Positions 19,001-61,009 of a stretch of DNA of 64,000 nucleotides are shown here, piece after piece. The stretch spans positions 127,194 through 191,193 of the forward strand of contig JBEKKK010000003.1 in NCBI GenBank assembly GCA_050010755.1, given 5' to 3'. Position numbers and translations under genes: made by a program. The DNA is from Candidatus Bathyarchaeia archaeon (GTDB lineage Archaea > Thermoproteota > Bathyarchaeia > Bathyarchaeales > Bathycorpusculaceae). Numbering within the stretch: position 1 is the first letter of the stretch; each line of letters begins with the position of its first letter. The notes under the pieces were generated by a model, which saw only the letters and a program-made list of their open reading frames with translations, was not told where the DNA came from and ran no database searches.

Positions 19001-19015
19001 TAGAGGTTTGTTTCA
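19001..19015 (+). promoter_or_regulatory. Candidate 15-bp operator TAGAG-GTTTG-TTTCA
   Basis: Matches the shared TGGAA-N5-TTCCA type motif; followed by GAAAG and a weak AT-rich box upstream of 19078. Confidence 0.5.
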
Positions 19016-19077
19016 GAAAGGTAGATAAGCGCCCAAATCGAAATACCCATGTAGCGTTGCTCGGGGAGGAGGGTAGT

Positions 19078-19998
19078 TTGAAGAGGACAGTTTCTGGGAT
19101 ACTGTTCATGCTGCTTTTGATAGCGACGTTCACACTTGCATTTGACCTCGGACCCGCCTCGGCGCGCGCGCTAGCTGTTCCTCCAACAATCAGGAATATT
19201 TCTCAGGTTCCTGACGTAAACAGCGTTAATGACAGCCAAGCTGTGGCAGTGTCGGCTAACGTGACGGACAACAGCGGCACAGGATTTGCGAACGTTACCC
19301 TCGTCTATTCACCCGATGGTTGGACTATAAACTCCACTGCTGCAATGACGCCGAACGGTGCAACTGGGTTGTACGGTGGCACCATTCCAGGATTTTTGAG
19401 CGGAACGGTCGTCTACTATGTCATCCAGGCCTACGACAACAGCGGAGGCTTTACGGAAAGTACGCGCGGGACCTATACAGTCGTCTCAAAAGCGCAGGCG
19501 GTGCTGGTTACAGAGATAACACCCAGCACTACGTGGGTTTACCAAGGGCATGTTGTCAACGTCAACGTAACGGTCAGCAACGTCGGAGGTTCTGCCGAAA
19601 AGGTTTGGGTCACCCTGTTCTACAACTTAGCAGCCGAACTAATCATAGGTGCATATACCTCCGCCGTTATCCTGAATATGGGGCAAAACTACACGTTTCC
19701 GTTCACATGGAACACAACAGGCATACCCATCAACTATCCTGGCTACACGCTGACAGCAGTGGCCATGATTAGCGGAGGCTCGAACACACTCTCCGGGAAC
19801 ATAACGGTCAGACTCATTGGCGATGTCAACGGGGACGGAAAGGTTGATCTGAGAGACCTCGCGTTGGCTGCTAGAGCATTCGGTTCCACTCCAACAAGTC
19901 CAAACTGGAACCCAGCCGCAGACATAAACGGCGACGGCAAGGTCGACTTGAAAGACATCGCGTTGATAGCCAGAAACTTCGGACAACGCTACTCATAA
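19078..19998 (+). CDS. Secreted Ig-like + CARDB + dockerin protein
   Basis: TTG start after GGAGGAGGG; signal peptide; GDVNGDGKVDLRD...NWNPAADINGDGKVDLKD. Confidence 0.85.
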   Translation: MKRTVSGILFMLLLIATFTLAFDLGPASARALAVPPTIRNISQVPDVNSVNDSQAVAVSANVTDNSGTGFANVTLVYSPDGWTINSTAAMTPNGATGLYGGTIPGFLSGTVVYYVIQAYDNSGGFTESTRGTYTVVSKAQAVLVTEITPSTTWVYQGHVVNVNVTVSNVGGSAEKVWVTLFYNLAAELIIGAYTSAVILNMGQNYTFPFTWNTTGIPINYPGYTLTAVAMISGGSNTLSGNITVRLIGDVNGDGKVDLRDLALAARAFGSTPTSPNWNPAADINGDGKVDLKDIALIARNFGQRYS

Positions 19999-20124
19999 TC
20001 CCTTTTTGCAGCGATGCTCGGTATAGCGCGTGCTGGCTTTGTCTTGTGAAGTCGGTTCGTTTCGAGTAAGGTTTGGGCCGTCATGGGTGTTGTTTGTTTC
20101 TTGGGCCGTTTTGCGGGTGTGTGG

Positions 20125-20622
20125 TTAGGCGAGTTGTGACAGTGTGTTGCTGGTTAGGGTGATTTCCGTATCTAGTGGGGCTTGGTATGATTGTATTTCG
20201 ATTTTGAGCTCGTTCTGGAGGTAGGTTTCGAATTCATGGAACACAGGACTGTCTGTGTTGTTGAGTTTAATGCACTTGTTTTTTCCGTGTTGTACGGAGC
20301 TGAGGTCGAAGAGGGCTATGTTTTTGGAGTAGTCGGGTTTTTTGAGGACGGTGTTGTACATGTCTTGTGAGGGCGGTTCTGAGAAGAGCCAGGCTTGGTG
20401 GGATTGTTCAACGACTGTGTAGAGGAGTCCTTTGTGGACTATGCATTTTCTGTTTGTGATTATGGTTTTGAATGAGGCTGGGTTGACGTTTTTGGCTGAG
20501 AGGAAGTTGTGGTATTCGTTGTCGAGTTCGACCCAGTCTTCGTTTTCGGATGTTCTCCAGCCGCGGAGTCGGCAAAACTGTTTGAAGCTGGTGACGATTT
20601 CCCATATTCTGGAAATGTTCAT
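20125..20622 (-). CDS. Hypothetical protein
   Basis: 165-aa ORF divergent from the Lrp gene; SD-like GGGAAAG upstream. Confidence 0.75.
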   Translation of the reverse strand: MNISRIWEIVTSFKQFCRLRGWRTSENEDWVELDNEYHNFLSAKNVNPASFKTIITNRKCIVHKGLLYTVVEQSHQAWLFSEPPSQDMYNTVLKKPDYSKNIALFDLSSVQHGKNKCIKLNNTDSPVFHEFETYLQNELKIEIQSYQAPLDTEITLTSNTLSQLA

Positions 20623-20871
20623 AATCTTTCCCCGAGTTGGAGCCTTGTTCTAGAACAAAGTTCTATTCTATCGGCCGAAGGAATTAAGTGTTTCTGTAAC
20701 CACTTTCCGCAAAAATGAATATTTTCAGTCCAATTATTTGCGGTTTTAATTGCAAATACATGCGTTACACACAAATTCGCGGACAAATGGCGGCTATGGG
20801 TTTTTCCATGGAAATGTCTAGGAACACGCTCTTTTGATGATAAGGAATAAATTCATACGAGTTCACTCTGA

Positions 20872-21390
20872 ATGGCGGAGACGCAGGAATTGAGAGTCAA
20901 GAACAATACGGTTTCCTTGGATGCCATGGACATCGAGATTCTGAGAGCACTGCAGAAGGATAGCAGCGAAACATACGCTGCCATGGGCAAGCGGTTTGGA
21001 ATCGCTCATTCAACGGTGCGTGACAGGATACGGAAGATGGAGCAGCAGGGGGTAATACAGAACTATACGGCCACCATCGACGCTGAGAAGATTGGATTAA
21101 GAAACATAACAGCGATGATGACGGTTTACACGGATCCCAAGGAAACTGAGAGAGTGGCTGAGAAGTTGGCAGCGCTGCCAGAAGTTCTCGAGGCCTACAC
21201 GTCCCTTTCAGAAGAACTCCTTATCATCGCAAAAGTGTCGGCGGCAAGCCAGGAAAACCTACATGAGTTCATAGCCAACTCTGTCGCTCCCCTGCCTGGA
21301 GTCTCGAGAATTCGCACGTCAATCATCACGAAAAAGTTTAAAGAAACCCAATTTTCAATCACAGAGGCGTCAAAAAAGGTAAATTTATAA
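20872..21390 (+). CDS. Lrp/AsnC family transcriptional regulator
   Basis: LDAMDIEILRALQKDS...HSTVRDRIRKMEQQGVI HTH, followed by a RAM domain ending RIRTSII. Confidence 0.92.
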   Translation: MAETQELRVKNNTVSLDAMDIEILRALQKDSSETYAAMGKRFGIAHSTVRDRIRKMEQQGVIQNYTATIDAEKIGLRNITAMMTVYTDPKETERVAEKLAALPEVLEAYTSLSEELLIIAKVSAASQENLHEFIANSVAPLPGVSRIRTSIITKKFKETQFSITEASKKVNL

Positions 21391-21425
21391 AAGAGTATGC
21401 GATATCAAACACGGACTGACGAGTT

Positions 21426-21770
21426 ATGACTATGAATACGGATTCAAAGATCCTCAAAACAGTTCCGAGGGAGAAAGCGTTCTATTTCTTCACGTCGATT
21501 GGAAACTACACTGGATCGAGCGCAGCGTCCCTGAAGGAATTCATGGGAAGAATAAACGAGGTTAACGTGAAGTCCTTGGAGTTTCACCTGGGCCGCGGAG
21601 ACTTTGAAAAATGGGTAGCAGAGGTCCTGCAGGATCAAGAACTCGCGGGCGAAATCAAAAGGTTGCAGAAGCTAAACCTCACGGGCAACGGCCTGAGGGA
21701 CCAACTCAGCTTTGTCGTTTCGCGACGTGTGAAAAGATTGACAACTCAACCTACCCCTAGCCGCTACTAA
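21426..21770 (+). CDS. DUF5752-like small protein
   Basis: AFYFFTSIG...SLKEF...SLEFHL.RGDFEKWV..VL.D.ELA motif. Confidence 0.75.
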   Translation: MTMNTDSKILKTVPREKAFYFFTSIGNYTGSSAASLKEFMGRINEVNVKSLEFHLGRGDFEKWVAEVLQDQELAGEIKRLQKLNLTGNGLRDQLSFVVSRRVKRLTTQPTPSRY

Positions 21771-21921
21771 GAGCTCATACAAATTATCCAGCTCGCCTGC
21801 GGACAAAGACTGGCGAGATTTAAGAAAGCCGTCTTCGCTCTTGCGTCTTAGCTTTTCGTTCTAGATGAGTCTAACCATTGGCAAAAAACGTTTCTAAAAC
21901 AGTGGAAGGAACAAGCCTGTC

Positions 21922-24072
21922 TCAATAAGCCGTCGTACGCGTGCCAAAGAACCTAACCACTATGGCCATGTCTTTCATGTTAACTTTACCGTCACAGTTT
22001 ACGTCTGCGGCCAGGTTCCAGTTTGGACTGCCCGGGGTGGAGCCGAAGGCGCGGGCTACCAGAATTATATCTTTCATGTCGATTTTTCCGTCCCCGTTTA
22101 CGTCGCCTCTGAGCCTGACAGTTATGTTGCCGTCAATAAATGTGTTCGAACCCGTTGGTATGGTTGCCACAGCTGCTAATGTATAAATGCCCACTGGCAC
22201 GCCCACAGTACTCCAAACGAACGTGTGTGTGTAGTTTTGGTTCATCTCGAGATGAATTTGAAGCGCTCCTATGACCTGGTTGGCCGTTATGTTATAGTAG
22301 AGGGTGATCATCGCGTCTTCGGCGAAGTCTCCGATGTTCCAGACTGTGACGGTGATGTTGGCGCATTCATGTGGAATGACGGGTATGTCTTGGTAAGTCC
22401 ACGGTGGCCCCGTGACGCTTGTCACGATGACTTCGTGGATGCCTGTTATGTAAATGCCTGTTATTGTTCCGCATTCCTCAGTTACGTTGAGCGATGCCGA
22501 CTCTAGCGTCGACAAGCCGGTGGTCGAATTCCAATGGTATGTCGTCACGCTGCCGACCAATCGCGGCAGAAACTCGAAGGTGTGAGTGGACCCGACGAGC
22601 CATATGAACGACAAAGGCAGCTGCGCCGCAGAATATCCGACGGAGTCTACGATGACCACGGTACCATTGTAGTCAGAACCTACTCCAAGCTGATCAAATG
22701 TGACTGAAGCCTTCGGCGGTACGCTGATGGGAAGTATCTCGATGATAGGGCCAACCCACTCCGTAGCGATTGCCACGCCACCATCGATGGGATCTTTCCC
22801 GTCATAGACGCTGACAATTACCGTAGCTGCGCCTGAGAACGCCGACTTCGGAATGCAACTGCTGCAAACGGGTACGCTAATTGTCCAGTTCTTGTACTCA
22901 CCCCATGCTGCACCTTCCACAGTCGTCGTGAACTCTGCAGTTCCTATCGTAACATTCAGGTTGTCTGATATTTCAGCCAGAATAAGAATGGGGTATGGTT
23001 GACTAGTCGGGAGTTGTTGCATGTAGTATGAGCCGTAGGTCACGTAAACGTTAACGGGGTCGCCGTGGCCGTATCCAGGAGGTGGACCTGGCTCGGGCGG
23101 TGGATTGTCCGTCGTGACGTTCCAGACGTGCACGATGTAGTCATACTGGAATTGCATCGAATCTTCGACAAACTGATCGGCAACCTGAACTATCGTGGTC
23201 ACCGTCCAAGTTCCAAGCAGACCGTCCGGGTTTGGGGATTGCCATGGCATTCTAACACTGACGCTGGCAACCCCAATCGAGTCTGTCACACTACCGAGCG
23301 TAGCGTACAACGCGGAGTTTGGTTCCTGAATTTCGAAGGCAACCGTCTCGTTTTGCACCGGAACGCTGTTTGCGGTTACGAAAGCATTTAGGTATATCAA
23401 GGTCTGAGGCTCAACTACGTCCATCGGATTGTTGGGACCTTCTCCGCCGTATGGAGCTGGGAACGCTAAATCGGTTTGCTCAATGATGCCAACCAGGTTT
23501 CCATGGCCACCGTTTACTGCCCCACCGTATAGGTCCACATTCAAACCTGATTGAGTCTTCGCATACTGGAATTGCATCATATCCTCGGCTGACTGATTGG
23601 CAGCTTGTATTGTTGCGTTCACGGTCCAGGTGCCAAGAAGACTCTCTGGGTTTGTTGATGGCCATGGCATCCTAGCACTGACGCTGGCAACCCCAATCGA
23701 GTCTGTAAAACCCATAAGTGTAGTGTACAATGTAGAGTTTACTTCTTCACCGTAAATGGGTTCAAAAATTTCGAAGGCAACCGTCTCGTTTTGCACCGGA
23801 GCGCTGTTTTCGGTTACGTACGCGTTCAGGTAGATCAACGTTTGAGGCTCAACGGCGTTCATCGGATTGTTCGAGCCTTGTCCACCAAAAGGAGCCTGAA
23901 ACGCCAAATCGATTAGCTCGTGGACGCCAACCAAGCCTCCAGTGCCGCCGTTCACCGCCCCACCATAAAGATCGACAGCCAAAGTTGATAGAGCCCCAAC
24001 TGGAAGAGCCCTAACGCACATGAAGGCTAGGGTAATGATAATCAAAAATAGAATAGTCACTTTGGCCCTCAA
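21922..24072 (-). CDS. Secreted surface protein: two GGAVNGG/FPAPYGG domains, CARDB, dockerin
   Basis: Signal peptide, internal ~140-aa duplication visible at DNA level, C-terminal GDVNGDGKIDMKD...ADVNCDGKVNMKD. Confidence 0.85.
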   Translation of the reverse strand: MRAKVTILFLIIITLAFMCVRALPVGALSTLAVDLYGGAVNGGTGGLVGVHELIDLAFQAPFGGQGSNNPMNAVEPQTLIYLNAYVTENSAPVQNETVAFEIFEPIYGEEVNSTLYTTLMGFTDSIGVASVSARMPWPSTNPESLLGTWTVNATIQAANQSAEDMMQFQYAKTQSGLNVDLYGGAVNGGHGNLVGIIEQTDLAFPAPYGGEGPNNPMDVVEPQTLIYLNAFVTANSVPVQNETVAFEIQEPNSALYATLGSVTDSIGVASVSVRMPWQSPNPDGLLGTWTVTTIVQVADQFVEDSMQFQYDYIVHVWNVTTDNPPPEPGPPPGYGHGDPVNVYVTYGSYYMQQLPTSQPYPILILAEISDNLNVTIGTAEFTTTVEGAAWGEYKNWTISVPVCSSCIPKSAFSGAATVIVSVYDGKDPIDGGVAIATEWVGPIIEILPISVPPKASVTFDQLGVGSDYNGTVVIVDSVGYSAAQLPLSFIWLVGSTHTFEFLPRLVGSVTTYHWNSTTGLSTLESASLNVTEECGTITGIYITGIHEVIVTSVTGPPWTYQDIPVIPHECANITVTVWNIGDFAEDAMITLYYNITANQVIGALQIHLEMNQNYTHTFVWSTVGVPVGIYTLAAVATIPTGSNTFIDGNITVRLRGDVNGDGKIDMKDIILVARAFGSTPGSPNWNLAADVNCDGKVNMKDMAIVVRFFGTRTTAY

Positions 24073-24189
24073 TGAAAGCCCTTTCCCTCTCCCTTCTACA
24101 ACTATTTCACGGTTACGTTGATTTAAATGTTTGCTCCACTAGAGTCTGCACGTCAGTTTGAACGAATCTTTGCTCAACTTGGGGAAGGA

Positions 24190-25920
24190 CTAGTAGGTCG
24201 CTTGGCTGCCAAAGAACCTGACTACTAAGGCCATGTCTTTCATGTCAACGACACCGTCACAGTTTATGTCAGCGGCCGGGTTCCAGTTGGAGCTGTTCGG
24301 AGTGGATCCGAAGGCACGGGCCACCAACACGATGTCTCTCAAGTCGACCCTTCCGTCTCCGTTCACATCGCCTTTGATTCTGACGGTTATGTTACCGTCT
24401 ACGTAGATGAAGGAACCCGTTGGTATCGTTGCCACGGCCGTCAACGTGTAGGTTCGAGTTGGTATGCCAACAGTCTTCCAAATAAAAAGATGAGTGAAGT
24501 TTTGTCCTACTTCAAGATGGACCTGGAACGAGCCTACGAGTTGATTGGCGGTTATATTATAATAGAGGTAGACCGTTGCGTTTTCGGGAAAGTCTCCCAC
24601 GTTCTCGACCGTGACAGTGATGTTGGCACATTCATGAGGGATCACGGGTATGTCCTGGTACGTGTATGTTGGCGCCGAGACGTTAGTGATGATAACTGCG
24701 TGGAGGCCGGTTACGTAGTTGCCTATTATGTTTTCGCAGACAGCGGTCACGGTGATCGATGCCGACTGTAGGGTAAACAGACCGGTGGTGGAAACCCACT
24801 GGTACTTCCTGATACTGCCGACCAATGGTGACAGAAACGTGAAGTTGTGCGTGGAGCTGAGTATCCATATGAATGAAACAGGCAGTTGCGACAAGGAGTA
24901 GTTGACTCCGTCGACGATAAGCACGGTGCCATTGAAATCTGTGCCGACTCCCGTTACAAAAAAGGTTAGTGAACCTTTCGGCGGGACGCTTATGGGGAGT
25001 ATCTCAACCGTTGGACCTACCCACTCTGGCGTGATTGCCACACCGCCCTCTGATGGTTCTAATCCATCGAAGACGGAGATAGACACGGTGGCTAGGCCTG
25101 CGGCGGCGAACTTCGGTACGTCCAGGTTAACGTTAATTGTAGAGTTCTTGTACTCACCCCATGCTGCTCCTCCAACTGTTGTGGTGATTTCTGCGGTTCC
25201 TATCGTCACGTTCAGGTTGTCTGTTACTTCGGCTAGGATGAGGACCGGGTACGGTTGGCTGGTCGGCAGTTGTTGCATGTAGTATGAGCCGTAGGTCACG
25301 TGGATGTTTAGAGGGTCGCCGTGGCCGTATCCCGCGGGGGGGCCAGGCTCGGGCAACGGGTTGTCCGTTGTTACGTTCCAGACGTGGACGATATAGTCAT
25401 ACTGGAATTGCATCATATCCTCGGCTGACTTTGCCGCAACTTGTACTGTTGCATTCACGGTCCACGTGCCAAGCAGACCGTCCGGGTTTGCGGATGGCCA
25501 CGGCATCCTAGTGCTGAAGCTGGCAACTCCCATCGAGTCTGTCACATTCCAAAGTTCAGCGTACGACGTAAAGTTTGGTTCCTGCAGCAGGAAGGTAACG
25601 TTCTCATTTGACAACGGAAAGCTGTTTTCCGTAACGTATGCGTTCAAGTAGACCAGCGTTTGAGGCTCAACGACGTCCATCGGATTGTTAGGGCCCTCTC
25701 CGCCGTATGGAGCTGGGAACGCTAAATCGGTTTGCTCAATGATGCCAACAAGGTTTCCATGACCACCGTTCACTGCACCCCCGTATAGGTCCACAGTCAA
25801 ACCTGATAGAGCCTTCACAGGAGCAATCTCGGTGCACATGAAGGCGAAGGCAACACTGATCAACAAGAACAACATTAATGTTCTTCTAATAGAAAGCCCT
25901 CCGCCCCTTTGCTTCAACAA
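24190..25920 (-). CDS. Paralog of the previous gene with one FPAPYGG domain; CARDB, dockerin (start may be ATT at 25890)
   Basis: Near-identical DNA and protein segments to 21922..24072; dockerin GDVNGDGRVDLRD...ADINCDGVVDMKD. Confidence 0.85.
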   Translation of the reverse strand: MLKQRGGGLSIRRTLMLFLLISVAFAFMCTEIAPVKALSGLTVDLYGGAVNGGHGNLVGIIEQTDLAFPAPYGGEGPNNPMDVVEPQTLVYLNAYVTENSFPLSNENVTFLLQEPNFTSYAELWNVTDSMGVASFSTRMPWPSANPDGLLGTWTVNATVQVAAKSAEDMMQFQYDYIVHVWNVTTDNPLPEPGPPAGYGHGDPLNIHVTYGSYYMQQLPTSQPYPVLILAEVTDNLNVTIGTAEITTTVGGAAWGEYKNSTINVNLDVPKFAAAGLATVSISVFDGLEPSEGGVAITPEWVGPTVEILPISVPPKGSLTFFVTGVGTDFNGTVLIVDGVNYSLSQLPVSFIWILSSTHNFTFLSPLVGSIRKYQWVSTTGLFTLQSASITVTAVCENIIGNYVTGLHAVIITNVSAPTYTYQDIPVIPHECANITVTVENVGDFPENATVYLYYNITANQLVGSFQVHLEVGQNFTHLFIWKTVGIPTRTYTLTAVATIPTGSFIYVDGNITVRIKGDVNGDGRVDLRDIVLVARAFGSTPNSSNWNPAADINCDGVVDMKDMALVVRFFGSQATY

Positions 25921-25995
25921 TCATTTCATCCCTGAATACGATTGCTCAATACTTGCCCAATCATTTGCGAACTCTATCTTTCGCTCCAACGCGCA

Positions 25996-28377
25996 CTAGT
26001 AGGTCGTAAAGGCGCCTATGTTTCTGGCTATTAGAGCTAAGTCTTTCATGTCAACTACGCCGTCGCCGTTTATGTCAGCTGCCGGGTTCCAGTTCGGGCT
26101 GCTTGGGCTTTGGCCGAAAAGCATTGCCACGGTCGCGATGTCCCTTAAATCAACTCTCCCGTCGCCGTTGACATCGCCAACAAGTCTGACGGTTATGTTA
26201 CCGCCGATAAACGTGCCCGAACCCGAGGGTATCGTTACCACCGCTGCTAGCGTGTATGTGTGGCACGACACGGTTCCAGTGTTCCACATAAATGTGAGCG
26301 TGAAGTTTTGTCCTTTCTGCAGGAACACAGGGTATGCGCTTATGCGACCGGTTGCCGTTTTGTTGTAGTATGTGATGATGACCCACGCGCTTTCGTTGAA
26401 TTGCCCGATGTCGCTGACTGTGACGCTGATGTTGACGCTGAACCCGTGATAGACCCACAGGGGCGCCGTTATATTTGTAACTACAACGTTATGGGCGCCA
26501 GTCGTGTAGTCGCCAATCACGCTTCCAGGGCCGCCGATGGTTATTGTGGCAGACTGCAGAGTCGACAAGCCCGTTGTAGAGGTCCAGAAGTACTGCTTTG
26601 CAGGCGAAACGACGACGAGTGGCGACTGGAACGCGAAACTGTGCGTTGAGCCACTGTTGTACCAGAATGAAGTCGGCAGACTACTGACGCTATAGTTTGA
26701 GCCGTCTACGATGATCACTGTGCCCGTGAAGTCCGAGCCAACGCCTGATTGATTGAAAGTGACATAATATTGGGTCACGTAGTTCGCGGTCACTGTCTTA
26801 TTTCCGTCCATCATAACCGTCGTTGATGGTGAGCTTGGGCTGGTTATTTCCTGCATGTTAGTTGTTGTCCAGCCGGTGAATTGGTATTGGGAAATACTGG
26901 ACATTATCGTGACGCTCTGGTTTGCCGTTATTGGCGCTGAAGAACCTGCAGAATAGAGCCCCTGTCCAGTGGGAGTGCCGATGTCAGGCGGGTTTGTGAC
27001 CACCGTTAGGAAATACTGCGCAGTCGTAAAGGTTATAGCTTGACTTACGTTGGCGCTGCTGACCGTGATAGAACCAGACGCTGGAGAGGCCGCGTAGCCT
27101 AGGACAATGCCGACGGTGTATGGATAACCGCCATTGCTGATCCCTGAGAATGTGATAGTATCGGACGTTGAAGACTGTGTCACTCCGTTAAACGTCACGT
27201 TCCACATTGTGCCGGATGTTAAGCCGCTTTCGGTGAAGGACACAGAAAAAGTCTGCCCTGAGACAAAGTTGGCAGTTATCGTGCCTGGACTGCTGACGTT
27301 TGCCGTTGTGGAAGCTGATGATGGATTGCTCAATGTTATTGATCCCGTGGTCGTCCAGTTGGAGAACTTGAAGCCAGAGTTGGGCGTCGCGGATATCGGA
27401 AGCCCTCCAGCGTCCTCCCAGACATTCGTTCCCGATGGAGTAGTTGTTCCGCCTCCCGAAGGACTGACGGCAAACGATACTTCGTACTGAGTTTTGTAAG
27501 AGCCAGTCACGGTCTCGGTTGCTGAGACTGTTAAGGGCGAAGTGACGTTAACTCCCGTGTTGACGAACTGTTTGCCAGAAACGCTGCTTGAAACATTGGT
27601 CTGATACGCAAAGAGTAGAGTGTCTCCAGTGTTGGCTGAAGTGATATTCGGCAGTTGGCTGAAAGTCTTCGCTGTGCCATTAACGGTTACAACCGTTCCA
27701 GAAGCAGAACTGTCCAGGCCAGATTGGGCGAAGGTGATCTGCTGTTTCGAAACAACGCTACTGCTGAAAGTGTAGGTGCAGTTGCCGTAATTGAATCCTG
27801 GCTCTTCGATGCCAAGATTATCAAAACCGTAAGAAAGGAGAGAGTCCCATTGGATGATGCTTGAGAGTGAGCCGCCCGGCGCAGGAGCCTGAGTGATATT
27901 AAACTCTACGATGAACAAACTGCCAACGTCGATTGTGGCTAGGCCCGTACCCAAAATTGTTTCGCCAAAACCGTTAGGCTCGCCAATCGTGCCATCTGTG
28001 TTGTTCCAGACCGAGGGCTCTTGAACAAGGCTCGAAACGGCAATCCCGTTGGTCTCCATCCACAGGCTTTCTTTGCCCCCTGTGCCACTGAACGTAGCGG
28101 TCACTACTTGAAGCTGTGACGGGTCGAAGAATAGTCCAGCAGACCAACCAGAGCTGCTGTCGGGGGCATCGATCCAACCGGTCACGTTGAATAGTGTGCC
28201 CACTGAAGCAGTGTTGGTGCTGAAAGTTTCGGTGCTCGGGTCAAGGTATAGTGATGGTTGGGGGGGCTGAGCCTTTACTCTTGGCGTGACCACTTGAAGG
28301 CCTAAAATCTGTAAACCGACCATTAACATTGCCATGACAACTAGAGTCGAAATAATCTTGCTCAGTTTTCTATTCAT
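25996..28377 (-). CDS. Secreted cohesin-like + InlB-B/Ig-like repeats + CARDB + dockerin protein
   Basis: N-terminal domain is paralogous to that of 17837; SPSGGGTTTP..ATPNSGFKFSNW repeats; thermopsin-C-like VSFTESGL..WNVT repeat; C-terminal dockerin. Confidence 0.85.
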   Translation of the reverse strand: MNRKLSKIISTLVVMAMLMVGLQILGLQVVTPRVKAQPPQPSLYLDPSTETFSTNTASVGTLFNVTGWIDAPDSSSGWSAGLFFDPSQLQVVTATFSGTGGKESLWMETNGIAVSSLVQEPSVWNNTDGTIGEPNGFGETILGTGLATIDVGSLFIVEFNITQAPAPGGSLSSIIQWDSLLSYGFDNLGIEEPGFNYGNCTYTFSSSVVSKQQITFAQSGLDSSASGTVVTVNGTAKTFSQLPNITSANTGDTLLFAYQTNVSSSVSGKQFVNTGVNVTSPLTVSATETVTGSYKTQYEVSFAVSPSGGGTTTPSGTNVWEDAGGLPISATPNSGFKFSNWTTTGSITLSNPSSASTTANVSSPGTITANFVSGQTFSVSFTESGLTSGTMWNVTFNGVTQSSTSDTITFSGISNGGYPYTVGIVLGYAASPASGSITVSSANVSQAITFTTAQYFLTVVTNPPDIGTPTGQGLYSAGSSAPITANQSVTIMSSISQYQFTGWTTTNMQEITSPSSPSTTVMMDGNKTVTANYVTQYYVTFNQSGVGSDFTGTVIIVDGSNYSVSSLPTSFWYNSGSTHSFAFQSPLVVVSPAKQYFWTSTTGLSTLQSATITIGGPGSVIGDYTTGAHNVVVTNITAPLWVYHGFSVNISVTVSDIGQFNESAWVIITYYNKTATGRISAYPVFLQKGQNFTLTFMWNTGTVSCHTYTLAAVVTIPSGSGTFIGGNITVRLVGDVNGDGRVDLRDIATVAMLFGQSPSSPNWNPAADINGDGVVDMKDLALIARNIGAFTTY

Positions 28378-28494: not shown

Positions 28495-28509
28495 TGGAAT
28501 AATCCTCCA
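28495..28509 (-). promoter_or_regulatory. Candidate operator TGGAA-TAATC-CTCCA (plus-strand spelling)
   Basis: Copy of the shared motif upstream of 28377, 5 bp from an AT-rich box. Confidence 0.6.
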
Positions 28510-28623: not shown

Positions 28624-28638
28624 TAGAGGTATCTTACA
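28624..28638 (+). promoter_or_regulatory. Candidate operator TAGAG-GTATC-TTACA
   Basis: Degenerate motif copy 6 bp upstream of ATTAAATA, upstream of the 28800 gene. Confidence 0.4.
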
Positions 28639-28799
28639 TAGCTGATTAAATAGTTCCGTGTTCATGATTTTTTTGAAGTTAAAAGGAAGGAGTAGGCTTC
28701 GATGCGCGATTTGACGGGAGGTTAGCGCTGAAAAGCCGCCAGAAACTGGCAGTGTTGTGAATGACTCTATGCAAACGGAAGCTGCGAGAACTCAACGTT

Positions 28800-30647
28800 T
28801 TGAAGCATAGAGCGTGCGTCATACTCGTGATGCTTCTGGTGATCACGCTTGCTTCCACCGTTGTGGGCGTCAAGATTGTTCCTGCGAAGGCTCAATCGGG
28901 CAGCTACGTGGATATCTTCACTCAGAGGGGTGGTGAGGGAGCAAACCAGTCAAGCGACATGTTTGGACCGCAAGAGATTGTCCAGTTGTACGCGGCGGTT
29001 GCAGCGAACGAGGAACCTGTCGATGGCGTCTTGGTCACGTTTGGCATAACCGAGCCGATGCCTGTTTCGAACGGAATCGCATTCATCAGAACGGCGACAA
29101 CCAATGCTAGCGGGGTGGCAGAGACGGATTTTTCGTTGCATTCTATGGGTCAGAATGAAGCCTTTGGAACTTGGACAGCTGATGCAACTGTTGATGTTGC
29201 CGGAATGATCCTGACGGATAGCTTGACTTTCACAGTAGAATGGACGGTCGAAGTTGTTTCTGTCAGAACAGTCGATGCGAACCCCCCGAACTACAGCGGG
29301 TTCCCTCCTTCCCGCACTTCCTGGGGGGAGACTGGATGGGTCGGCCTTGAAATAGCCCTGAGGAATAATTTGATGAACATTCAGAATGTTTCTATAGCGA
29401 TTTCCCTCGTTGATAATTTGTTGACGACCGTGAATTATACGCAGATAGATGGCTTTCTCATGCCCCCGAACGGAAAGATCGTCTACATCTTCAGAAACAT
29501 TGGGATTCCAAAACACGCTGCACCAGGAAACGCATCAGTCCTCGTTGACGTTTTTAACCAAGAAAACGTATCGCTCTCTCCTCAAGCTTCAGCCAGCCTG
29601 CTAATAGATATCGGCAACCCGGCTTTTCCGAATTTCATCGATGACTCAGTGGTTTACGCTTATCTAACTCCGACGTTTGTCGAAGTCGGCGGCCAGATCA
29701 ACGCGACAGTGCTCATAAGAAATGAAGGAACCGTCATTCTTAACGATATTATTGTGGACATGGAAGTCGACAACAGCATCGTGTCTGAACAGACGATTGC
29801 CTCGCTCGAGCCATACGACTACGAATTTCAAAGCGTGCTCCTGAACACCACCGGGCTCTCTGAAGGAATCCACGTTTTCTCTGTAAACGCCACCATTTTT
29901 CCCGAGGAAGCGGATCTCACCGACAACAACTACTCGGTACCCTTCATAATCGGGCCTGCTCAGACCCGAATAACTTTCGACCAATCGGGCGTGGGCCAAG
30001 ATTTCAGCGGCACCATAGTCGTCGTCGACTCGGTCGGCTATTCTGCGGCGCAACTGCCAGTTTCGTTCGCATGGAGCGTCGGCTCCACCCACAGTTTCGC
30101 ATTCGAGACACCCCTTCGTGTAAACGCAAACGCCAAGCAGTATCTTTGGTCGAGCACGACTGGCCTGTCAACGGTCGAAAATGACACCATCACAGTATCA
30201 ACTTCCGGAAACATAACAGGAAATTACAGGACACAATACTACCTGACTGTCACCTCGCCACACGATTCTCCCATTCCATCAAGCGGCTGGTTCGACTCTG
30301 GAAGCACAATACCCGCATCTGTGACCTCCCCAGTGTCCGCAGATTCTGCAACCCAGTACGTCTGTACGGGTTGGACAGGCACTGGAAGCGTTCTAGCTTC
30401 TGGGTCCGCCACATCACTTACCTTCACCATCACTGAGCCCTCGAGCATAACTTGGAACTGGAAGACCCAGAGTCAAGTTAAACCATTAAAAATACCGGTT
30501 TACCTAATTTTGCTGTTCCTCTTCGGGTTGGGGATCATCGGAGCTTTAGTCTTGTTCTTGTTCGCTGGAATCATGAGAAGACGACGAAGAAGAAAAAAGA
30601 AACTACCCGGACCTTCTTATGCGGTTATAGTTCATCCACACATTTAA
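28800..30647 (+). CDS. Membrane-anchored surface protein (divergent GGxG-PQE domain, CARDB, Ig-like, C-terminal TM + poly-Arg)
   Basis: Signal peptide, DIFTQRGGEGANQSSDMFGPQE, and a TM followed by RRRRRRKKK. Start could be 28761. Confidence 0.85.
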   Translation: MKHRACVILVMLLVITLASTVVGVKIVPAKAQSGSYVDIFTQRGGEGANQSSDMFGPQEIVQLYAAVAANEEPVDGVLVTFGITEPMPVSNGIAFIRTATTNASGVAETDFSLHSMGQNEAFGTWTADATVDVAGMILTDSLTFTVEWTVEVVSVRTVDANPPNYSGFPPSRTSWGETGWVGLEIALRNNLMNIQNVSIAISLVDNLLTTVNYTQIDGFLMPPNGKIVYIFRNIGIPKHAAPGNASVLVDVFNQENVSLSPQASASLLIDIGNPAFPNFIDDSVVYAYLTPTFVEVGGQINATVLIRNEGTVILNDIIVDMEVDNSIVSEQTIASLEPYDYEFQSVLLNTTGLSEGIHVFSVNATIFPEEADLTDNNYSVPFIIGPAQTRITFDQSGVGQDFSGTIVVVDSVGYSAAQLPVSFAWSVGSTHSFAFETPLRVNANAKQYLWSSTTGLSTVENDTITVSTSGNITGNYRTQYYLTVTSPHDSPIPSSGWFDSGSTIPASVTSPVSADSATQYVCTGWTGTGSVLASGSATSLTFTITEPSSITWNWKTQSQVKPLKIPVYLILLFLFGLGIIGALVLFLFAGIMRRRRRRKKKLPGPSYAVIVHPHI

Positions 30648-36868: not shown

Positions 36869-36883
36869 TGGAATAAACCTCCA
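36869..36883 (-). promoter_or_regulatory. Candidate operator TGGAA-TAAAC-CTCCA (plus-strand spelling)
   Basis: Motif lies 5 bp upstream of TATA-like CTTAAG of the 36823 gene. Confidence 0.65.
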
Positions 36884-39667: not shown

Positions 39668-39682
39668 TGGAATTATCTTCTA
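39668..39682 (-). promoter_or_regulatory. Candidate operator TGGAA-TTATC-TTCTA (plus-strand spelling)
   Basis: Motif lies 5 bp upstream of TATA box TTTAAAT of the 39604 gene. Confidence 0.65.
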
Positions 39683-47701: not shown

Positions 47702-47702
47702 G

Positions 47703-49423: not shown

Positions 49424-52114
49424 TTAAGAGGCGTACACGCCAGCCCACATCGAATAGGTCGTAACCGTATTCGATAGGCCCGCTGTCGTGCGTGCTGATG
49501 CGACGGCGCCTGTGAACGTGTCAGTCACTGTGCAGAAGACGTAGGAGCTTCCAGCCGGAGCGGTAAACGTGAATGTTGCTCCTGTTGGGCCCGCTGTCGG
49601 TGCACCTAGCTGACCACTTGCCAACGTTCCATAGTACCAATGTATCACACGGCCAGTCGGGTTTCCGTAGCCTGTAAGAGGCGTTGCGGTAAAGGTTATA
49701 CCAGTTCCTGTAGACACAACGCTTGTGATCGGCTTTATGGTCACCAATGGACCAAATGTGCCGATCGGGCTGGATACACCGAACTGTCTAGCCACGAATG
49801 CAATGGCCTTCATGTTGATTGTTCTGATGTTCACAAGGTCATCCACGAACACCCAGTTTATTGGGATAGGTTCGGTGAAGCTTGAGCCGAACGCACGAGC
49901 GATTGAGGCGATGTCTTTCATGTTGACTGTGCCATCGCGGTTAACGTCTGCGGCCAGATACTCACTGAACGGTTGCGTTGCACTGGCCTGGTTTGCTTCT
50001 GGCACGTAGTAGAACTTGTATTCGTTAAAGTAGTTGTGGCCTGGGTAAATGGGGTTGTAGTACCAGCCCTGAACCCAGTCGTACTCAAAGTGGCGGCCCG
50101 TGGGGGTGATAACCATAACACTCGGGCAGTCAGCAATTGCTAGCTGTGCCACAGCGCTATAGTCTGCAGCTCTCGCTGGACCGTTAGGTAGAGTAATGGC
50201 GTCGTTAATCAGAGCGTCCATCGTGGCGTTAGAGTATAGTTGCCATGAGCTGAATGCGCCTCCAGTGTGGTAGAATGGCAGTGCGAAGTCGTGCGGGTCT
50301 GGGAAGTCAACGAGCCAGCCGATGACATACGTAGATATTTGCTGTGTTTCTGCGGCTAGCAGGTACGGTTTCCAATCGAGGCTTATTATGTTGACGTGGA
50401 AGTTCGGACTTATGCTTTGGATTGCTGTCTGGATCAAAGTGCACAGCTCTTGCCTCTCTCCGTTGCCAGTGTTGTAGGCCAACGTTATGGTGAACCCGTT
50501 GGTCATTAGGTTTGGCCAAGCATTGAAGTATTGAGCTGCCGCTGTCAGGTTGTAGTTGAAGCCCACGATGCTTGCATTATATCCGTACAAGCCTGGAATA
50601 ATGGCTGTTGCGGGTACAATGCCTTCACCCAACGCTGCAACTGCGAGTTCCTGCGCGTAGTTTATACTGTACGCGAAGGCCTTCCTCATGTCGATACCGT
50701 ATGGGTTACCAAACGGCTCGTTTCCGAAGAAGTTGCTCGGAATTCCAGCAGGGTTAAAGGTCGCAGGACCGCCTGACACTGGTGGGTCGATTACTCCGTA
50801 AGGAGTCGCGGTCGATATGTTCATTGTGAAGAACAGACCGTCGACTTCCAGCTCAGCCAGGTTTGCGTAGCAGCGTATGCCAGCATCTGGAAAGTTTGTC
50901 GATGAAGACGGCAATGGATAGTAGCTTCCGGTATAGCCATTCGTGTAGATGTCACCGATGTTAGCAAGTGAAGGAAGCGCCGCAAAGTCACAGTCACCGG
51001 ACTTGAAGAAGCCCTGTGCTGCTGACCATGCGTAGTTCCACGACACTTCAATCGAGTTCGCGTAGCCTGCAACTCCTGCGCCAGCCTCTGTTGGATAGAA
51101 GGCCGGTGCTCCGCCCCACCAGTTGGGGTTTCTGGTTGCAGCCCATTCATTGTGGGTGTAATCCGGTGTGCCTGGCGTCAGGATGAACGGACCAGAACCG
51201 TACTCCATCGGAGTTGGTGTGTCCAACGGCGATAGTGCGGGGTTCCAGAGGGGCACCCATGCTGTCAGGTTCGTGAAGCTTCCGTCCCAGTCGGGGCGGC
51301 CTGCTCCGGCGATGACTTGGTTGTTGATCCACTGCTTGCTCTCTACAGATGACCAGGTCTGGCAGAGAATCTGCAGGAACGGTGCGTAAGCGCCTGGGAA
51401 CATTATGTTGAACCAGACGTCCGTAGCGTTATACTGCACAGAGTCTCTGACCAGTGCGCCAATCTGGGCGTCCATCGCTGTGTTCGCGAAGTCAGTTCTA
51501 TTGAAATATGGCAATCCAGCTAATCCTCCGTATGAAGGATTAATGCCTCCGGCGTTGTCCAGCAAGGGTTCGTCCAACATCCATTGTGGACCACTTGCCC
51601 TGTCCTGGAACAACGTGCGTTGGAAGCTGTATACAACGTCTGCAGTTGTTAGGCTGTAGTTGTAAGGAGGCGCAAACTGGACACCTTGGCGGAGTTTGAA
51701 GTCATACTGCCAGTAATACTGAGCATTTGTCGTGCCATTAAGCTGTGCATTGTTTTCGAAGAGCAATGCGGAAACTGAATCAGAGCTAGGCGGATTCGGA
51801 ACTCCAATGGTAGAATGCCCACTGGTTACCGGCCCATCTGATTCGCTCGTAGCGAGTGCGAAGATGTACGGAGAACTTGAGCTCTCTGCGTTCCACATGA
51901 GCAGCGTGTCCATCGTGTTCTGCAGTATTTCGCCGCTTGCAGTGTCGTAACACCATGAGTAGTCAACGGTCGATGGGTTTCCACCCTGAATGGTGATGTC
52001 GTACAAGTCCATCGGTCTCTTAATCGGCGGTGATGCCATTATCGGCGGTGCTAATATCGCTGATACTCCCAGTAGAAGACCTATGATCAAAGCTATTGGA
52101 ATCATTTTGTTCAT
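49424..52114 (-). CDS. oppA: Family-5 (Opp/Dpp) solute-binding protein with C-terminal dockerin and Ig-like domain
   Basis: YDTASGEILQN, FKLRQGVQF..LTTADVVYSFQR, GSGPF, MRKAFAYS, GWLVDFPDP; then ADVNRDGTVNMKDIASIARAFG. No lipobox and no TM. Confidence 0.9.
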   Translation of the reverse strand: MNKMIPIALIIGLLLGVSAILAPPIMASPPIKRPMDLYDITIQGGNPSTVDYSWCYDTASGEILQNTMDTLLMWNAESSSSPYIFALATSESDGPVTSGHSTIGVPNPPSSDSVSALLFENNAQLNGTTNAQYYWQYDFKLRQGVQFAPPYNYSLTTADVVYSFQRTLFQDRASGPQWMLDEPLLDNAGGINPSYGGLAGLPYFNRTDFANTAMDAQIGALVRDSVQYNATDVWFNIMFPGAYAPFLQILCQTWSSVESKQWINNQVIAGAGRPDWDGSFTNLTAWVPLWNPALSPLDTPTPMEYGSGPFILTPGTPDYTHNEWAATRNPNWWGGAPAFYPTEAGAGVAGYANSIEVSWNYAWSAAQGFFKSGDCDFAALPSLANIGDIYTNGYTGSYYPLPSSSTNFPDAGIRCYANLAELEVDGLFFTMNISTATPYGVIDPPVSGGPATFNPAGIPSNFFGNEPFGNPYGIDMRKAFAYSINYAQELAVAALGEGIVPATAIIPGLYGYNASIVGFNYNLTAAAQYFNAWPNLMTNGFTITLAYNTGNGERQELCTLIQTAIQSISPNFHVNIISLDWKPYLLAAETQQISTYVIGWLVDFPDPHDFALPFYHTGGAFSSWQLYSNATMDALINDAITLPNGPARAADYSAVAQLAIADCPSVMVITPTGRHFEYDWVQGWYYNPIYPGHNYFNEYKFYYVPEANQASATQPFSEYLAADVNRDGTVNMKDIASIARAFGSSFTEPIPINWVFVDDLVNIRTINMKAIAFVARQFGVSSPIGTFGPLVTIKPITSVVSTGTGITFTATPLTGYGNPTGRVIHWYYGTLASGQLGAPTAGPTGATFTFTAPAGSSYVFCTVTDTFTGAVASARTTAGLSNTVTTYSMWAGVYAS

Positions 52115-52169
52115 TCTTTTCTCTCCTTTCTCATTTTTTCAGCGTTAAAAACCTACTAGAAAGCAGTAT

Positions 52170-52457
52170 TTAATCCTTGTGGAACAATGTTTCAGTAGAA
52201 ACTTCGCAAAAAAACTTGCGCGCAACATCGTTCGACAAGTCATCCTCAGCCTCTTCATCCTCTTCAGACTTGTCGGAAACCCATTTCCTATAGGTTCTCA
52301 GAATGAGCCAGAGAGCCAGAACCACTATAAGCGCAAGGACAGCCGAACCTGGCGAAAAAGCAAAAATCAACTCCACAAGCACGAAAGCCCCCAAAACCCC
52401 CACCAATATCGTAAAGAAAAGCATCCAGAACCATTTTTGCTTAAGAGGCCAAGTCAA
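52170..52457 (-). CDS. Small 2-TM membrane protein
   Basis: Two hydrophobic helices, then an acidic tail whose end overlaps the oppA promoter. Confidence 0.6.
   Translation of the reverse strand: MTWPLKQKWFWMLFFTILVGVLGAFVLVELIFAFSPGSAVLALIVVLALWLILRTYRKWVSDKSEEDEEAEDDLSNDVARKFFCEVSTETLFHKD
52180..52194 (-). promoter_or_regulatory. Candidate operator TGGAA-CAATG-TTTCA (plus-strand spelling)
   Basis: Motif lies 5 bp upstream of TATA box ATTAAATA of oppA. Confidence 0.6.
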
Positions 52458-53949: not shown

Positions 53950-54092
53950 CCAGCAAGAACGCCTCAAACAAGCGCCAGATAAGAACACGCGATAAAAAAA
54001 CCCCCACAGACGGCGCAGGGAATAATAAACGACAACGATTTATATTCGAAAAAGCCTATTAACCAGTAGAGAGGCGGGAGAGTCGATATCCA

Positions 54093-54356: not shown

Positions 54357-54696
54357 AACATCACCCTGACGTATCACCTTCCAAAACCCCGCCCCAAACG
54401 GGCGCAAGTCAAGCACCCAGCCTCTAATTCAGTTCTATCAAATCCTTTTCAAGCACTCTGATCGAATCGCGCCCGCAGTCTCCAATCTAAAAAAGACCCC
54501 TTTGAACCTTGCTCCTTCAAACCAAATTGGACAAGCGCGCGCAAATCAGCGGTTAACACGTGCGCTCTACTCCCCGATACTAACGCACAAAGCCGGATCG
54601 AGCCGTTTCAGCAAGGGTTCACATGCGCACAGTTTCTCAGCGTCCGCAAATCATATTTCCCAAATGCTTTCATATCTGACTAACCTGGCGAAACGC

Positions 54697-57468: not shown

Positions 57469-57553
57469 ACCTCAATGTTCTCCAACCGTTTAAAGAGCAC
57501 ATCCGCAAGAAAAACCCTCATCTGCCCATATTTTCTCAGATCTTCTCTCAGAC

Positions 57554-59485: not shown

Positions 59486-59953
59486 ACAGTCCCCCGTACA
59501 CGAGTGCAAAACCCAACTTTTAGGCTTAACTGAACGCAGATCGAAAAAGCTCTCATAAACCTACGACACAAAACACGCAAGCACTAGCTTTCATACGGTT
59601 GGGACAACGGGCTTGGGAAAAAGAATATCGAAACGCTCATCTTATGCAAGTCACATTCATGAAAGGCCGCAAAGAGCCGGTAAAGACAAATACAACAGAC
59701 CCAACAGCAGATTCAGCGAAGAATTTCACCAAACGGGTGGGCTCAAATGCGTGGAGAGTCTGTTGCGCATTGGAGAATGGAAAAGCAAATGTCTCCGCAC
59801 ACCTTGCCTCTTCACGTGGGAACGGCTTAGGAATGAAATCAGTACCGGCAGGGTCAAGAATTCCAAAGACAGCGAAATAGGGGAAAGACAGTTTTCAGGG
59901 TTTGAGAAGAACGAGTAAGCTTAGAATCAAGAGAAAAAAGAGGTTGTTGGTGG

Positions 59954-60946
59954 TTATTTACCATGCTTCTTGCGTGCTATCGTAATCGCAACTGCTAACA
60001 TGGCTATCATAATGAACAGCAATGACAGAACTGCGTACTCAGGTATGACCGTGTTCTGGTAAGGCGAGCTCTCAGTGAAGCCTCCGTTATTGTCGTAGAC
60101 GTCGACGACATAGGTTACAACCGTTCCGCCAATGTAACCAGGAATGGTGCCATCGTACAACCCAGTTGTGGCGTTCAGCGTCATGGGAGCAGTGTAGTTT
60201 GTAATCCAGTTTACAGCCGTTTCATAGATGATCGTAGCGTTCGCAATTCCTGCGCCGCTGTTGTCAGTCACGTTGGCCGACACAACCACAGCTTCACTGT
60301 CATTAACACTGTTTACGTCAGGAACCTGAGTCACGGAGTTGATTGTTGGAGCAGGAGCGTAGGATAGCGTAAAGCTTGCATCGTAGAGGTTGGCCGCAGA
60401 AATGATTGTGTTTCCGTTGACATCGTCGAAGAACGTGCCCGCCAAGCCTGTAGCATTGATGTCAAAGATCCCGGTGATTGGCGTTGGGTTTGCCGCGTTG
60501 GGCATCGATGTGATGTTAAACTCGGCATACATCAAACTGGCATTCTCTTCAGGTACGTAGTCACTTATTCCTAGAAGGCTCTCGCCAAACTCTATGCTGC
60601 CGAGGACGTTGTCAACCACTGGAGAGGGGCCTACAATGGTGTGCCCGGCAAAGTATTCGCTTGTTGTTCCGGCTGTGTAGCCACACGCCACTTCCTGGAA
60701 TACTGATGCATCAAAGTTCATTGTAACCTGCCAATCATACGTGCCGTTCTCCATGTTTGCCCACACTGTAAGATTGAACAGCGTTCCAACACTCGCATTG
60801 TCTGTGCTATACGATACGGTCGAAGGAGACACCCACATCGAGTCAAGCGGATACGACTGGGCTCTAACACTGTTTGTTGAAGCCATAACCAAGAAAAGCA
60901 TAAGTCCTATGATAGCAATAGCACTCGTGAATTTCTTTAAAGACAT
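59954..60946 (-). CDS. Cohesin-like + Ig-like protein with PEF-CTERM-like anchor (anchoring scaffoldin candidate)
   Basis: Signal peptide, LFNLTVWAN..DWQVTMNFDAS..LMYAEFNIT, ending VIPEY + TM + RKKHGK. Confidence 0.82.
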   Translation of the reverse strand: MSLKKFTSAIAIIGLMLFLVMASTNSVRAQSYPLDSMWVSPSTVSYSTDNASVGTLFNLTVWANMENGTYDWQVTMNFDASVFQEVACGYTAGTTSEYFAGHTIVGPSPVVDNVLGSIEFGESLLGISDYVPEENASLMYAEFNITSMPNAANPTPITGIFDINATGLAGTFFDDVNGNTIISAANLYDASFTLSYAPAPTINSVTQVPDVNSVNDSEAVVVSANVTDNSGAGIANATIIYETAVNWITNYTAPMTLNATTGLYDGTIPGYIGGTVVTYVVDVYDNNGGFTESSPYQNTVIPEYAVLSLLFIMIAMLAVAITIARKKHGK

Positions 60947-60994
60947 TTTTCCACCTTGGGTAAGTATATCGAGTGCTCAGGTTTTTAAGCTTTT

Positions 60995-61009
60995 TCCAAC
61001 ATCTTTTCA
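60995..61009 (-). promoter_or_regulatory. Weak candidate operator TCCAA-CATCT-TTTCA (plus-strand spelling)
   Basis: Same 5-bp spacing to TATA-like CTTAAAAA, but one arm is degenerate. Confidence 0.35.

Follow-up and report, generated by a model that had tools for sequence, protein, structure and literature searches.

The stretch analysed here (the window) comprises 64,000 nucleotides (nt) of a Candidatus Bathyarchaeia archaeon, G000:C3:127194-191193 in a genome (G000) of 2.19 Mb, 8 contigs and 48% G+C; genes for extracellular proteins are crowded within it, and a 15-bp inverted repeat (the dyad) recurs in the intergenic DNA upstream of several of them. In a Pfam scan of 28 open reading frames (ORFs) this crowding extended across 17.8–62 kb: 8/28 ORFs carry a dockerin domain, a single one (37073-39604) carries a cohesin domain, and several carry NosD/beta-helix, PKD or Flg_new_2 domains. 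Also encoded in the window are an M28 peptidase, a single Lrp/AsnC regulator (20872-21390) and an OppA-like binding protein (49424-52114), with oppBCDF-like genes after it on the same strand. The dyad is real and specific to intergenic DNA, and this regulator is its candidate binder. Sites in the window are given below; their scores, like all site scores here, come from a 19-column symmetric matrix that had been refined with intergenic hits.

20638-20652 (score 14.4) and 20651-20665 (score 19.1), intergenic: double operator, dyads TGGAGCCTTGTTCTA and TAGAACAAAGTTCTA at a 13-bp offset; the strongest in the window
19001-19015, plus strand, score 14.3, intergenic: dyad TAGAGGTTTGTTTCA, TAGATAAG 6 bp downstream; upstream of dockerin gene 19057/19078-19998
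28495-28509, minus strand, score 15.1, intergenic: dyad TGGAGGATTATTCCA, AATAATAG (28489-28482) 5 bp downstream; upstream of dockerin gene 25996-28377
28624-28638, plus strand, score 15.0, intergenic: dyad TAGAGGTATCTTACA, ATTAAATA 6 bp downstream; faces gene 28761-30647
36869-36883, minus strand, score 14.4, intergenic: dyad TGGAGGTTTATTCCA, CTTAAG 5 bp downstream; upstream of PKD-dockerin gene 35216-36823
39668-39682, minus strand, score 16.8, intergenic: dyad TAGAAGATAATTCCA, TTTAAAT (39662-39656) 5 bp downstream; upstream of cohesin gene 37073-39604
52180-52194, minus strand, score 16.9, intergenic: dyad TGAAACATTGTTCCA, ATTAAAT (52174-52168) 5 bp downstream; upstream of OppA-like gene 49424-52114
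38805-38819, score 14.4: dyad TAGAAGCTTGTTCCA inside the cohesin gene, among 10 coding hits of at least 14 genome-wide
20695-20709, plus strand, score 7.8: weak copy that does not represent the dyad but falls in another conserved non-coding block (…TTTTCCGCAAAAATG…)
60995-61009, score 4.5: weak copy, unsupported; the adjoining 60984-60998 scores 9.9

The window makes up 2.9% of the genome's bases, yet holds 8/54 good intergenic sites. Five main copies reported in the initial annotation are correct in coordinates and letters, each being intergenic and upstream of the gene named for it, and the distance of about 5 bp to the TATA box given there is also about right. Of the copies it had called weaker, that at 28624 scores as high as the main ones, while those at 20695 and 60995 fall away; the window's strongest copy, the double site 20638-20665, had been overlooked.

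Within the window alone the repeat does not rise above chance: TGGAA-N5-TTCCA, the consensus first put forward, had 46 matches with ≤2 mismatches, against 36.0 ± 6.1 in shuffled sequence, and 4/100 shuffles reached 46. The exact form has 0 occurrences in the intergenic DNA of the whole genome and was rejected as a consensus, although the inverted repeat and its N5 spacing stood. Crude gene calls on the genome (1913 genes, 78% of bases, leaving 1455 intergenic segments) allowed half-site pairs to be counted on both strands at spacings 0–11 in intergenic and in coding DNA, the latter being 3.6 times the former in size. The pattern T[AG]GA[AG]-Nx-[CT]TC[CT]A was found 72 times in intergenic DNA at x=5 (20, 20, 26, 18 and 6 times at x=0–4; 18, 16, 22, 32, 8 and 8 times at x=6–11), whereas its 50 coding occurrences at x=5 lie within the 38–84 of other spacings. 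TAGAA-N5-TTCCA occurred 13 times in intergenic DNA (other spacings 0–3) and 4 times in coding DNA. Among 36 intergenic sites the inner positions left free by the pattern were biased to S-A-n-T-S, positions 6 and 10 being C or G in about 80%, position 7 A and position 9 T; in the flanks, A precedes the dyad and T comes after it. An intergenic peak at N5 only, together with this bias at unconstrained positions, marks a real element with an extended consensus: T(A/G)GAA-N5-TTC(T/C)A, or more fully wTAGAA-S-A-n-T-S-TTCTAw, with TGGAG and TTCCA as common variants. Matrix scores ≥14 occurred 54 times in intergenic and 10 times in coding DNA, 19-fold per base, and scores ≥13 occurred 70 and 28 times; the matrix was trained on A+T-richer intergenic DNA, so that enrichments based on it are somewhat inflated, and the spacing test is the clean control.

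The non-significant count in the window might suggest chance matches, or functionless leftovers from the duplication of paralogue promoters. Some paralogous targets do have similar promoters, for example CARDB-dockerin genes sharing '...GTTCCAcaaNtgTTAATTc...', and the 5′ leaders after 39668 and 52180 resemble each other. Against this, the genome-wide excess is confined to one spacing and to intergenic DNA, and the 23 promoters that have a site ≥13 and belong to dockerin or secreted-like genes showed, once the site was masked, no mutual flank similarity at E≤1e-3. Data from other species, given below, bear on the same question.

Partner sites around 64 anchors preferred a single distance, 13 bp (11 counts against 0.05 expected), with pairs at the Lrp operator, C1:58449/58462, C1:234729/234742 and C1:217865/217878. 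Some of the top-scoring sites (18–21), namely C1:58449-58476, C1:234729-234756, C1:1044816 and C2:69908, lie in long stretches without a confident gene call; the only ORFs that follow them are of 50–100 codons, and these sites may drive small proteins or non-coding RNAs. In all, 17 sites ≥14 lack a suitably oriented gene call within 300 nt.

Other repeats accompany some copies of the dyad. The most over-represented intergenic word pair is a palindromic TAGCGCGCGCTA-like repeat (TAGC/GCGC-type pairs, about 160 against about 14 expected), of which a degenerate copy, CTAGCGAGCGCTAG (window 18990-19003), abuts the 19001 dyad. A composite repeat, TATAACTTTTCCG…(~25 nt)…AAGGACTGA followed by the dyad TAGAAGAATCCTCTAG, occurs at C1:948388, C3:116434, C7:7155 and C7:7984; the C3:116434 copy sits 10.8 kb before the window, and the TTTTCCG block of this repeat resembles a conserved block adjoining the Lrp operator.

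The position of the dyad relative to promoters was judged from 35 sites that could be oriented by a sole adjacent gene reading away from the site. Past the dyad, the A+T fraction climbs to 0.69–0.86 at +7 to +13, site-to-ATG distances concentrate at 50–85 nt, and typical dyad-to-TATA sequences are …TTCCAgaaggTTTAAAT, …TTCCAcaaggATTAAAT and …TTCTAtaaagcTTAAGAA. The near edge of the dyad thus appears to lie 6–7 bp upstream of a TATA-like box, abutting the place expected of the B recognition element (BRE). Such a position raises the alternative that the dyad is a part of the basal promoter, for instance an extended BRE for a particular TFB or TBP paralogue, defining a promoter class without a dedicated regulator; the TATA-side half-site, usually TTCCA followed by cAA or gAA, is in keeping with this. 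However, the dyad is two-fold symmetric with a strict N5 spacing; good sites (≥14) are present in only about 54 of the 1455 intergenic segments, and so not at the majority of promoters; the half-site with its flank, TTCCA[GC]AA, shows no intergenic enrichment of its own (105/464 occurrences, against an intergenic share of 22%); and in the conserved operator described below it is the TATA box that comes first, with the dyad downstream. The initial annotation had itself named presence at unrelated promoters, as an extended BRE, as the result that would undo its proposal. With that check turning out as it did, the dyad behaves as the site of a specific regulator, and a basal element is improbable.

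Conservation was assessed by counting TAGAA-N5-TTCYA (forward and reverse) against an N6 control in the genomes of 30 relatives, G001–G030. G000 gave an N5/N6 ratio of 35/10 and four other genomes of the same genus gave 37/18, 59/20, 51/13 and 60/16; the dyad is conserved across the genus. An N5 excess was also found in other genera and families (G010 36/16, G011 28/8, G019 47/17, G023 24/12, G025 20/7, G026 29/12), with none in G006 (7/6), G028 (0/20) or G029 (7/27).

Genes for surface proteins are over-represented downstream of the dyad. Outside the window, 26 genes have a site ≥13 with an accompanying TATA-like run no more than 300 nt upstream of them, and 9/26 carry dockerin, cohesin, CARDB, NosD, PKD, Big_3_5 or Flg_new_2 domains. 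The genome has 39 dockerin matches in 37 called genes: a site ≥13 was present within 250 nt upstream of 9/37 of these, compared with 45/1876 other genes (Fisher's test, 4e-7), and a site ≥11 upstream of 14/37 compared with 111/1876 (2e-8). A rough class of 214 'secreted-like' genes, defined by an N-terminal hydrophobic helix and no more than one other hydrophobic stretch, had an upstream site ≥13 in 21/214 cases, compared with 33/1699 for the remainder (7e-8), and with dockerin genes removed the proportion was 14/188 (1e-4). Because searches of the four same-genus genomes with the N-terminal 200 amino acids (aa) of the cohesin protein and of a 793-aa dockerin protein brought up nothing at E≤1e-8, the dockerin association was tested in sister genomes instead; OppA has few orthologues among the relatives. 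In G004, 6/19 dockerin genes had an upstream site ≥13 compared with 8/315 control genes, the controls being crudely called genes in 380 kb of contig C1 (Fisher's test, 3e-5), and the layout is the same, for example TAGAATAATGTTCCAgaagccTTTAATT.

A regulon of surface proteins alone, as the initial annotation had it, nevertheless claims too much. In G002 only 1/18 dockerin genes has a site, so that of the two sister species tested G004 alone reproduces the dockerin link. Of the targets outside the window, 17/26 are without the surface-protein domains counted. Most of these are ordinary genes or lack any Pfam family, and they include genes for MsrA, Cas1, an HTH_45 regulator, a GNAT protein, an ABC ATPase, an inositol monophosphatase, an amidase and ThyX, and divergent PhoU/PstS-like genes; false positives are likely among them. 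Crude gene calls, with 78% of the genome called, limit all of these site and gene statistics. The regulon is enriched for surface and secreted proteins and is not confined to them, since 33/54 genes with a site ≥13 (about 60%) are not secreted-like. At the Cas1 gene (C1:658436-659464) two dyad sites, of 16.9 and 12.9, lie upstream, and nearby intergenic DNA has a strongly repeated GTAA…TGTA…TTAC word pattern, probably an array of clustered regularly interspaced short palindromic repeats.

Several of the target genes in the window call for comment. Strand and short gaps suggest that dockerin gene 25996-28377 forms an operon with the same-strand dockerin genes that come after it, 24190-25920 and 21922-24072. 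Gene 28761-30647 encodes 628 aa with no Pfam family. Metatranscriptome contigs from four runs overlie parts of cohesin gene 37073-39604 at 95–100% identity, one spanning the start codon to 39616; they record the presence of this gene, or of a near relative's, in RNA libraries and say nothing of transcript starts or levels. These contigs give no depth on 35216-36823, and missing cover there carries no weight. An OppA paralogue at C3:65788-68460 (minus strand), 78% identical, has a TATA box (TTAAATA) and no site ≥7 upstream; lacking the dyad, it is probably regulated differently from the copy in the window.

The double operator, the strongest site in the window, is located between the Lrp gene and a divergent gene of 165 aa.

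20872-21390, plus strand: Lrp/AsnC-family regulator P0002, 172 aa, putative binder of the dyad
20125-20622, minus strand: 165-aa gene P0001, divergent to the Lrp gene; no Pfam match
20682-20688: TATA-like box AATTAAG/CTTAATT, about 16 bp from the operator; (A)ATTTAAA in relatives

Both domains that define the Lrp family are recognised in P0002, an N-terminal helix-turn-helix (HTH) of the HTH_AsnC type (PF13404, 5.3e-13, residues 16–57) and a C-terminal AsnC_trans_reg (RAM) domain (PF01037, 2.8e-13, residues 84–154); its closest solved relatives, each aligned over the full length, are FL11/PH1519 (2.4e-20) and LrpA (2.5e-19). Few paralogues compete with it, as among the nine RAM-domain frames in the genome only three (172, 185 and 196 aa) have room for an HTH. 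The other six, stand-alone RAM frames of 81–101 aa (C1:41431, 1043189, 1133146, 25056, 374384 and 1039921), could form mixed oligomers with the Lrp; mixed oligomers have been described for Pyrococcus DM1. Orthologues of the Lrp (≥54% identity) are present in 19/30 relatives, two of them with in-frame stops (G001:C18:16022-16507, one TGA; G026:C88:2804-3289, one TGA and one TAA).

The 165-aa gene is the divergent neighbour of the Lrp gene in 14/14 fetched loci (G000 included). Its predicted structure has a pLDDT (predicted local distance difference test) score of 86.5, and conserved residues include C17, H38, C60 and C117 (orthologues L046–L058). As regards its fold, Foldseek gave no match at E≤0.001, the ESM Atlas gave no usable match, and the best VIA-align Z was 7.3, in a range that the tool calls common.

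An operator site scoring 16.7–20.0 lies 198–277 nt before the Lrp ATG in 12/13 relatives' loci, and one is present at −213 to −305 from the Lrp ATG in 26/26 further Bathyarchaeia loci, most commonly as TAGAACAATATTCTA. These 26 were the loci scanned out of 31 from public genome contigs, after exclusion of two truncated matches and three at ≤31% identity; four are the same places as loci in G001–G004, and others may coincide with G005–G030. A site within the regulator's own control region or that of a divergent gene, as expected of DNA bound by an Lrp-type protein, is thus present in nearly all of these loci. Seen from the neighbour, the elements come in a constant order: TTTAAAT or CTTAAGT as the TATA box, a gap of about 10–16 bp, the double dyad and then, counted from the distal dyad, 26–35 nt to the ATG of the 165-aa gene (12/14 loci). 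In an alignment of 12 intergenic regions the TATA-like box 20682-20688 is a conserved block, and it is the likely promoter of 20125-20622. Given this layout, the operator would cover the expected transcription start of the 165-aa gene, a geometry that suggests a repressor. The same 12-locus alignment contains, in 20690-20870, further conserved non-coding blocks (TTTTGTCAnnnTTTTCCGCAAAAATG(A/T)AG, TTTTGTAGGCA, ACAAATTTGCGG and CATTTTTCCGAC-N-AATAAAT) with no conserved ORF, a 39-codon frame from 20716 not being kept in relatives; these blocks might belong to a long leader or a small RNA, or might be bound by another factor.

With the operator traced across families of the order, the N5 excess recurring in other species, and the G004 dockerin association involving genes that are not orthologues of those in the window, a dyad made of chance matches or duplication leftovers is highly improbable.

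Targets of Lrp proteins usually carry multiple sites, spaced by two or three helical turns, and a divergent pair of regulator and target genes with the operator between them is the usual Lrp/AsnC arrangement. Examples of such pairs are included in a review of archaeal Lrp proteins (PMC2995911), which describes dimers recognising imperfect inverted repeats of 13–17 bp with an AT-rich centre. The dyad, at 15 bp (17–19 bp with flanks), is of this size and symmetry; at its centre the middle three positions favour A-W-T, yet positions 6 and 10 are G or C in about 80%, and the centre of the conserved operator is CAATA. According to the same source, the dimer site of Ptr2 (Methanocaldococcus jannaschii), LysM and Ss-LrpB (both Sulfolobus solfataricus) lies a few bp upstream of the BRE in a highly constrained position. 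The dyad resembles these in position (as judged from TATA boxes predicted from sequence), in repeat size and in the regulation of its own or a neighbouring gene, the position being that of an archaeal upstream activating site. It differs in that Ptr2, LysM and Ss-LrpB each rely on at least two sites, phased by two or three turns, whereas the sites here are mostly single or 13-bp-offset doubles; target functions also differ, and the likeness drawn here is one of layout.

FL11 of Pyrococcus, the nearest solved relative of P0002, is described in the review as a global 'feast/famine' Lrp of about 200 transcription units that binds a palindromic site as a dimer, acting mainly as a repressor with lysine as co-repressor (PMC2995911). 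It is alike in being a global Lrp with a palindromic dimer site; its co-crystal site is 13 bp as against 15 bp here, and no surface-protein regulon is listed for it there. The Escherichia coli protein is a distant relative of P0002 (2gqq, E=2e-10) and the promoters here are of the archaeal TBP/TFB type, but its published consensus, yAGhAwATTwTdCTr or AGAATwwwATTCT (PMC5554404), is a 15-bp dyad with equally spaced AGAA/TTCT half-sites, with which 13/15 positions of the present consensus are compatible. Its regulon includes peptide transport (oppA), fimbriae and flagella (bioRxiv 10.1101/2022.03.07.483379), and the putative targets here, an OppA-like gene and surface proteins, recall a global regulator of oppA and surface appendages. 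In E. coli, Lrp acts as a repressor of oppA; the geometry found here suggests activation instead.

The dyad is therefore most likely the binding site of a dimeric HTH regulator, and with moderate confidence that regulator may be named as the Lrp 20872-21390. It is the natural candidate because of the divergent arrangement, the few RAM frames of HTH size, the match to the E. coli consensus and the site layout of archaeal Lrp proteins. P0002 itself has the sequence characters of the family, and the dyad has the size, the symmetry and the presence at its own locus of an Lrp-type site, though not the phasing of multiple sites. Thus the link to the resident Lrp drawn in the initial annotation is strengthened by an operator conserved at the Lrp locus across Bathyarchaeia and by the E. 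coli consensus, with the Lrp as candidate binder.

Several observations weigh against this reading. The proximal TATA-like box of the Lrp gene, AATAAAT, is about 20 nt before its ATG, with the operator about 190 nt away; anchored at the promoter of the neighbour and so far from that of the Lrp gene, the conserved operator would speak for regulation of the neighbour rather than for binding by the Lrp. An N5/N6 ratio >1.8 was found in 9/19 genomes with an Lrp orthologue and in 3/11 without, a loose correlation, although two of the three N5-excess genomes without an orthologue are only 64% and 76% complete. G008 and G009 have kept the Lrp orthologue while the operator is absent and N5/N6 is flat (15/15 and 8/13), and yet their recognition helix, AHSTVYDR, is the same as in operator-bearing genomes. 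There is no partner excess near 21 or 31 bp around the 64 anchor sites, most sites being single, and hence no sign of the helically phased clusters of Lrp-type operators; positions 6 and 10 are G/C here and A/T in the E. coli consensus; and the TATA boxes and transcription starts are predicted ones. Covariation of the recognition helix with loss of the operator was considered as a line of evidence and set aside as uninformative, the G008/G009 helix being unchanged.

Part of this evidence would also suit a real regulator site with another binder, either a transcription factor encoded elsewhere or the 165-aa neighbour regulating itself, with the Lrp a mere conserved neighbour. The distance of the operator is fixed to the ATG of the 165-aa gene and not to that of the Lrp gene; the 165-aa protein, without a known family or clear fold, might itself bind DNA, which again tells against the Lrp, and weak structural matches for it include nuclease-like folds; the loose correlation between orthologue and N5 excess and the G008 and G009 genomes point the same way; and an HTH_45 regulator gene (C1:218162-218446) has an upstream site, though 278 nt away. 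However, the model of the 165-aa protein has no apparent HTH or recognisable DNA-binding domain, the 15-bp AGAA/TTCT dyad matches the published Lrp consensus, and a divergent regulator–target pair with a central operator is typical of Lrp/AsnC proteins. Another binder is accordingly held to be rather unlikely, though it deserves to be taken seriously.

If the Lrp is the binder, its dimer would bind the dyad at some 40–60 promoters where the dyad ends 6–7 bp before a TATA-like box and abuts the BRE, and would probably activate them, since this position equals that used by Ptr2, LysM and Ss-LrpB. Dockerin, cohesin, PKD, NosD, CARDB and other secreted-like proteins would be over-represented in the activated class, to which the OppA-like gene would also belong. 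In the window, the promoters so activated would be those at 19001, 28495, 28624, 36869, 39668 and 52180, and, to judge from strand and from the shortness of the gaps, these six could account for the transcription of most surface-protein and opp genes from 19 to 52 kb. At its own locus, where the double site lies about 10–16 bp downstream of the TATA box of the 165-aa gene and across the expected start, the Lrp would probably repress that gene. A small-molecule signal is likely because P0002 has a RAM (ligand-binding) domain, and an amino acid is plausible, although several archaeal Lrp proteins are described as unresponsive to amino acids (PMC2995911). The whole would amount to a global regulator of the Lrp type, by which cell-surface composition and the uptake of peptides would be tied to a nutritional signal.

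A more elaborate history may be offered tentatively, and with more doubt than conviction. An ancestral local module, made up of the Lrp, its 165-aa partner and a double operator overlapping the transcription start, might have been extended in this genus to a global circuit in which cohesin–dockerin surface assembly and peptide uptake are switched on; the overlapping dimers, offset by 13 bp, would be unusual for an Lrp, and the 165-aa partner might act in the switch as a novel sensor or a co-regulator.

Anoxic sediments and peat hold Bathyarchaeia in abundance, and no genetic system is known for these archaea. No publication on a Bathyarchaeia Lrp, or on a regulon or binding motif in Bathyarchaeota, was found in a literature set that omits most subscription journals; six publications there that name Bathyarchaeota along with dockerin and cohesin deal, to judge from their titles, with other organisms. 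The regulon proposed here is of a kind already known, that of a global feast/famine Lrp, and is unusually clear and testable for an uncultured lineage. Its conserved operator would serve as a marker for tracing how a local regulator turned global, and operator, candidate regulator and about 50 target promoters together provide a testable handle on the timing of cohesin–dockerin surface display and peptide uptake.

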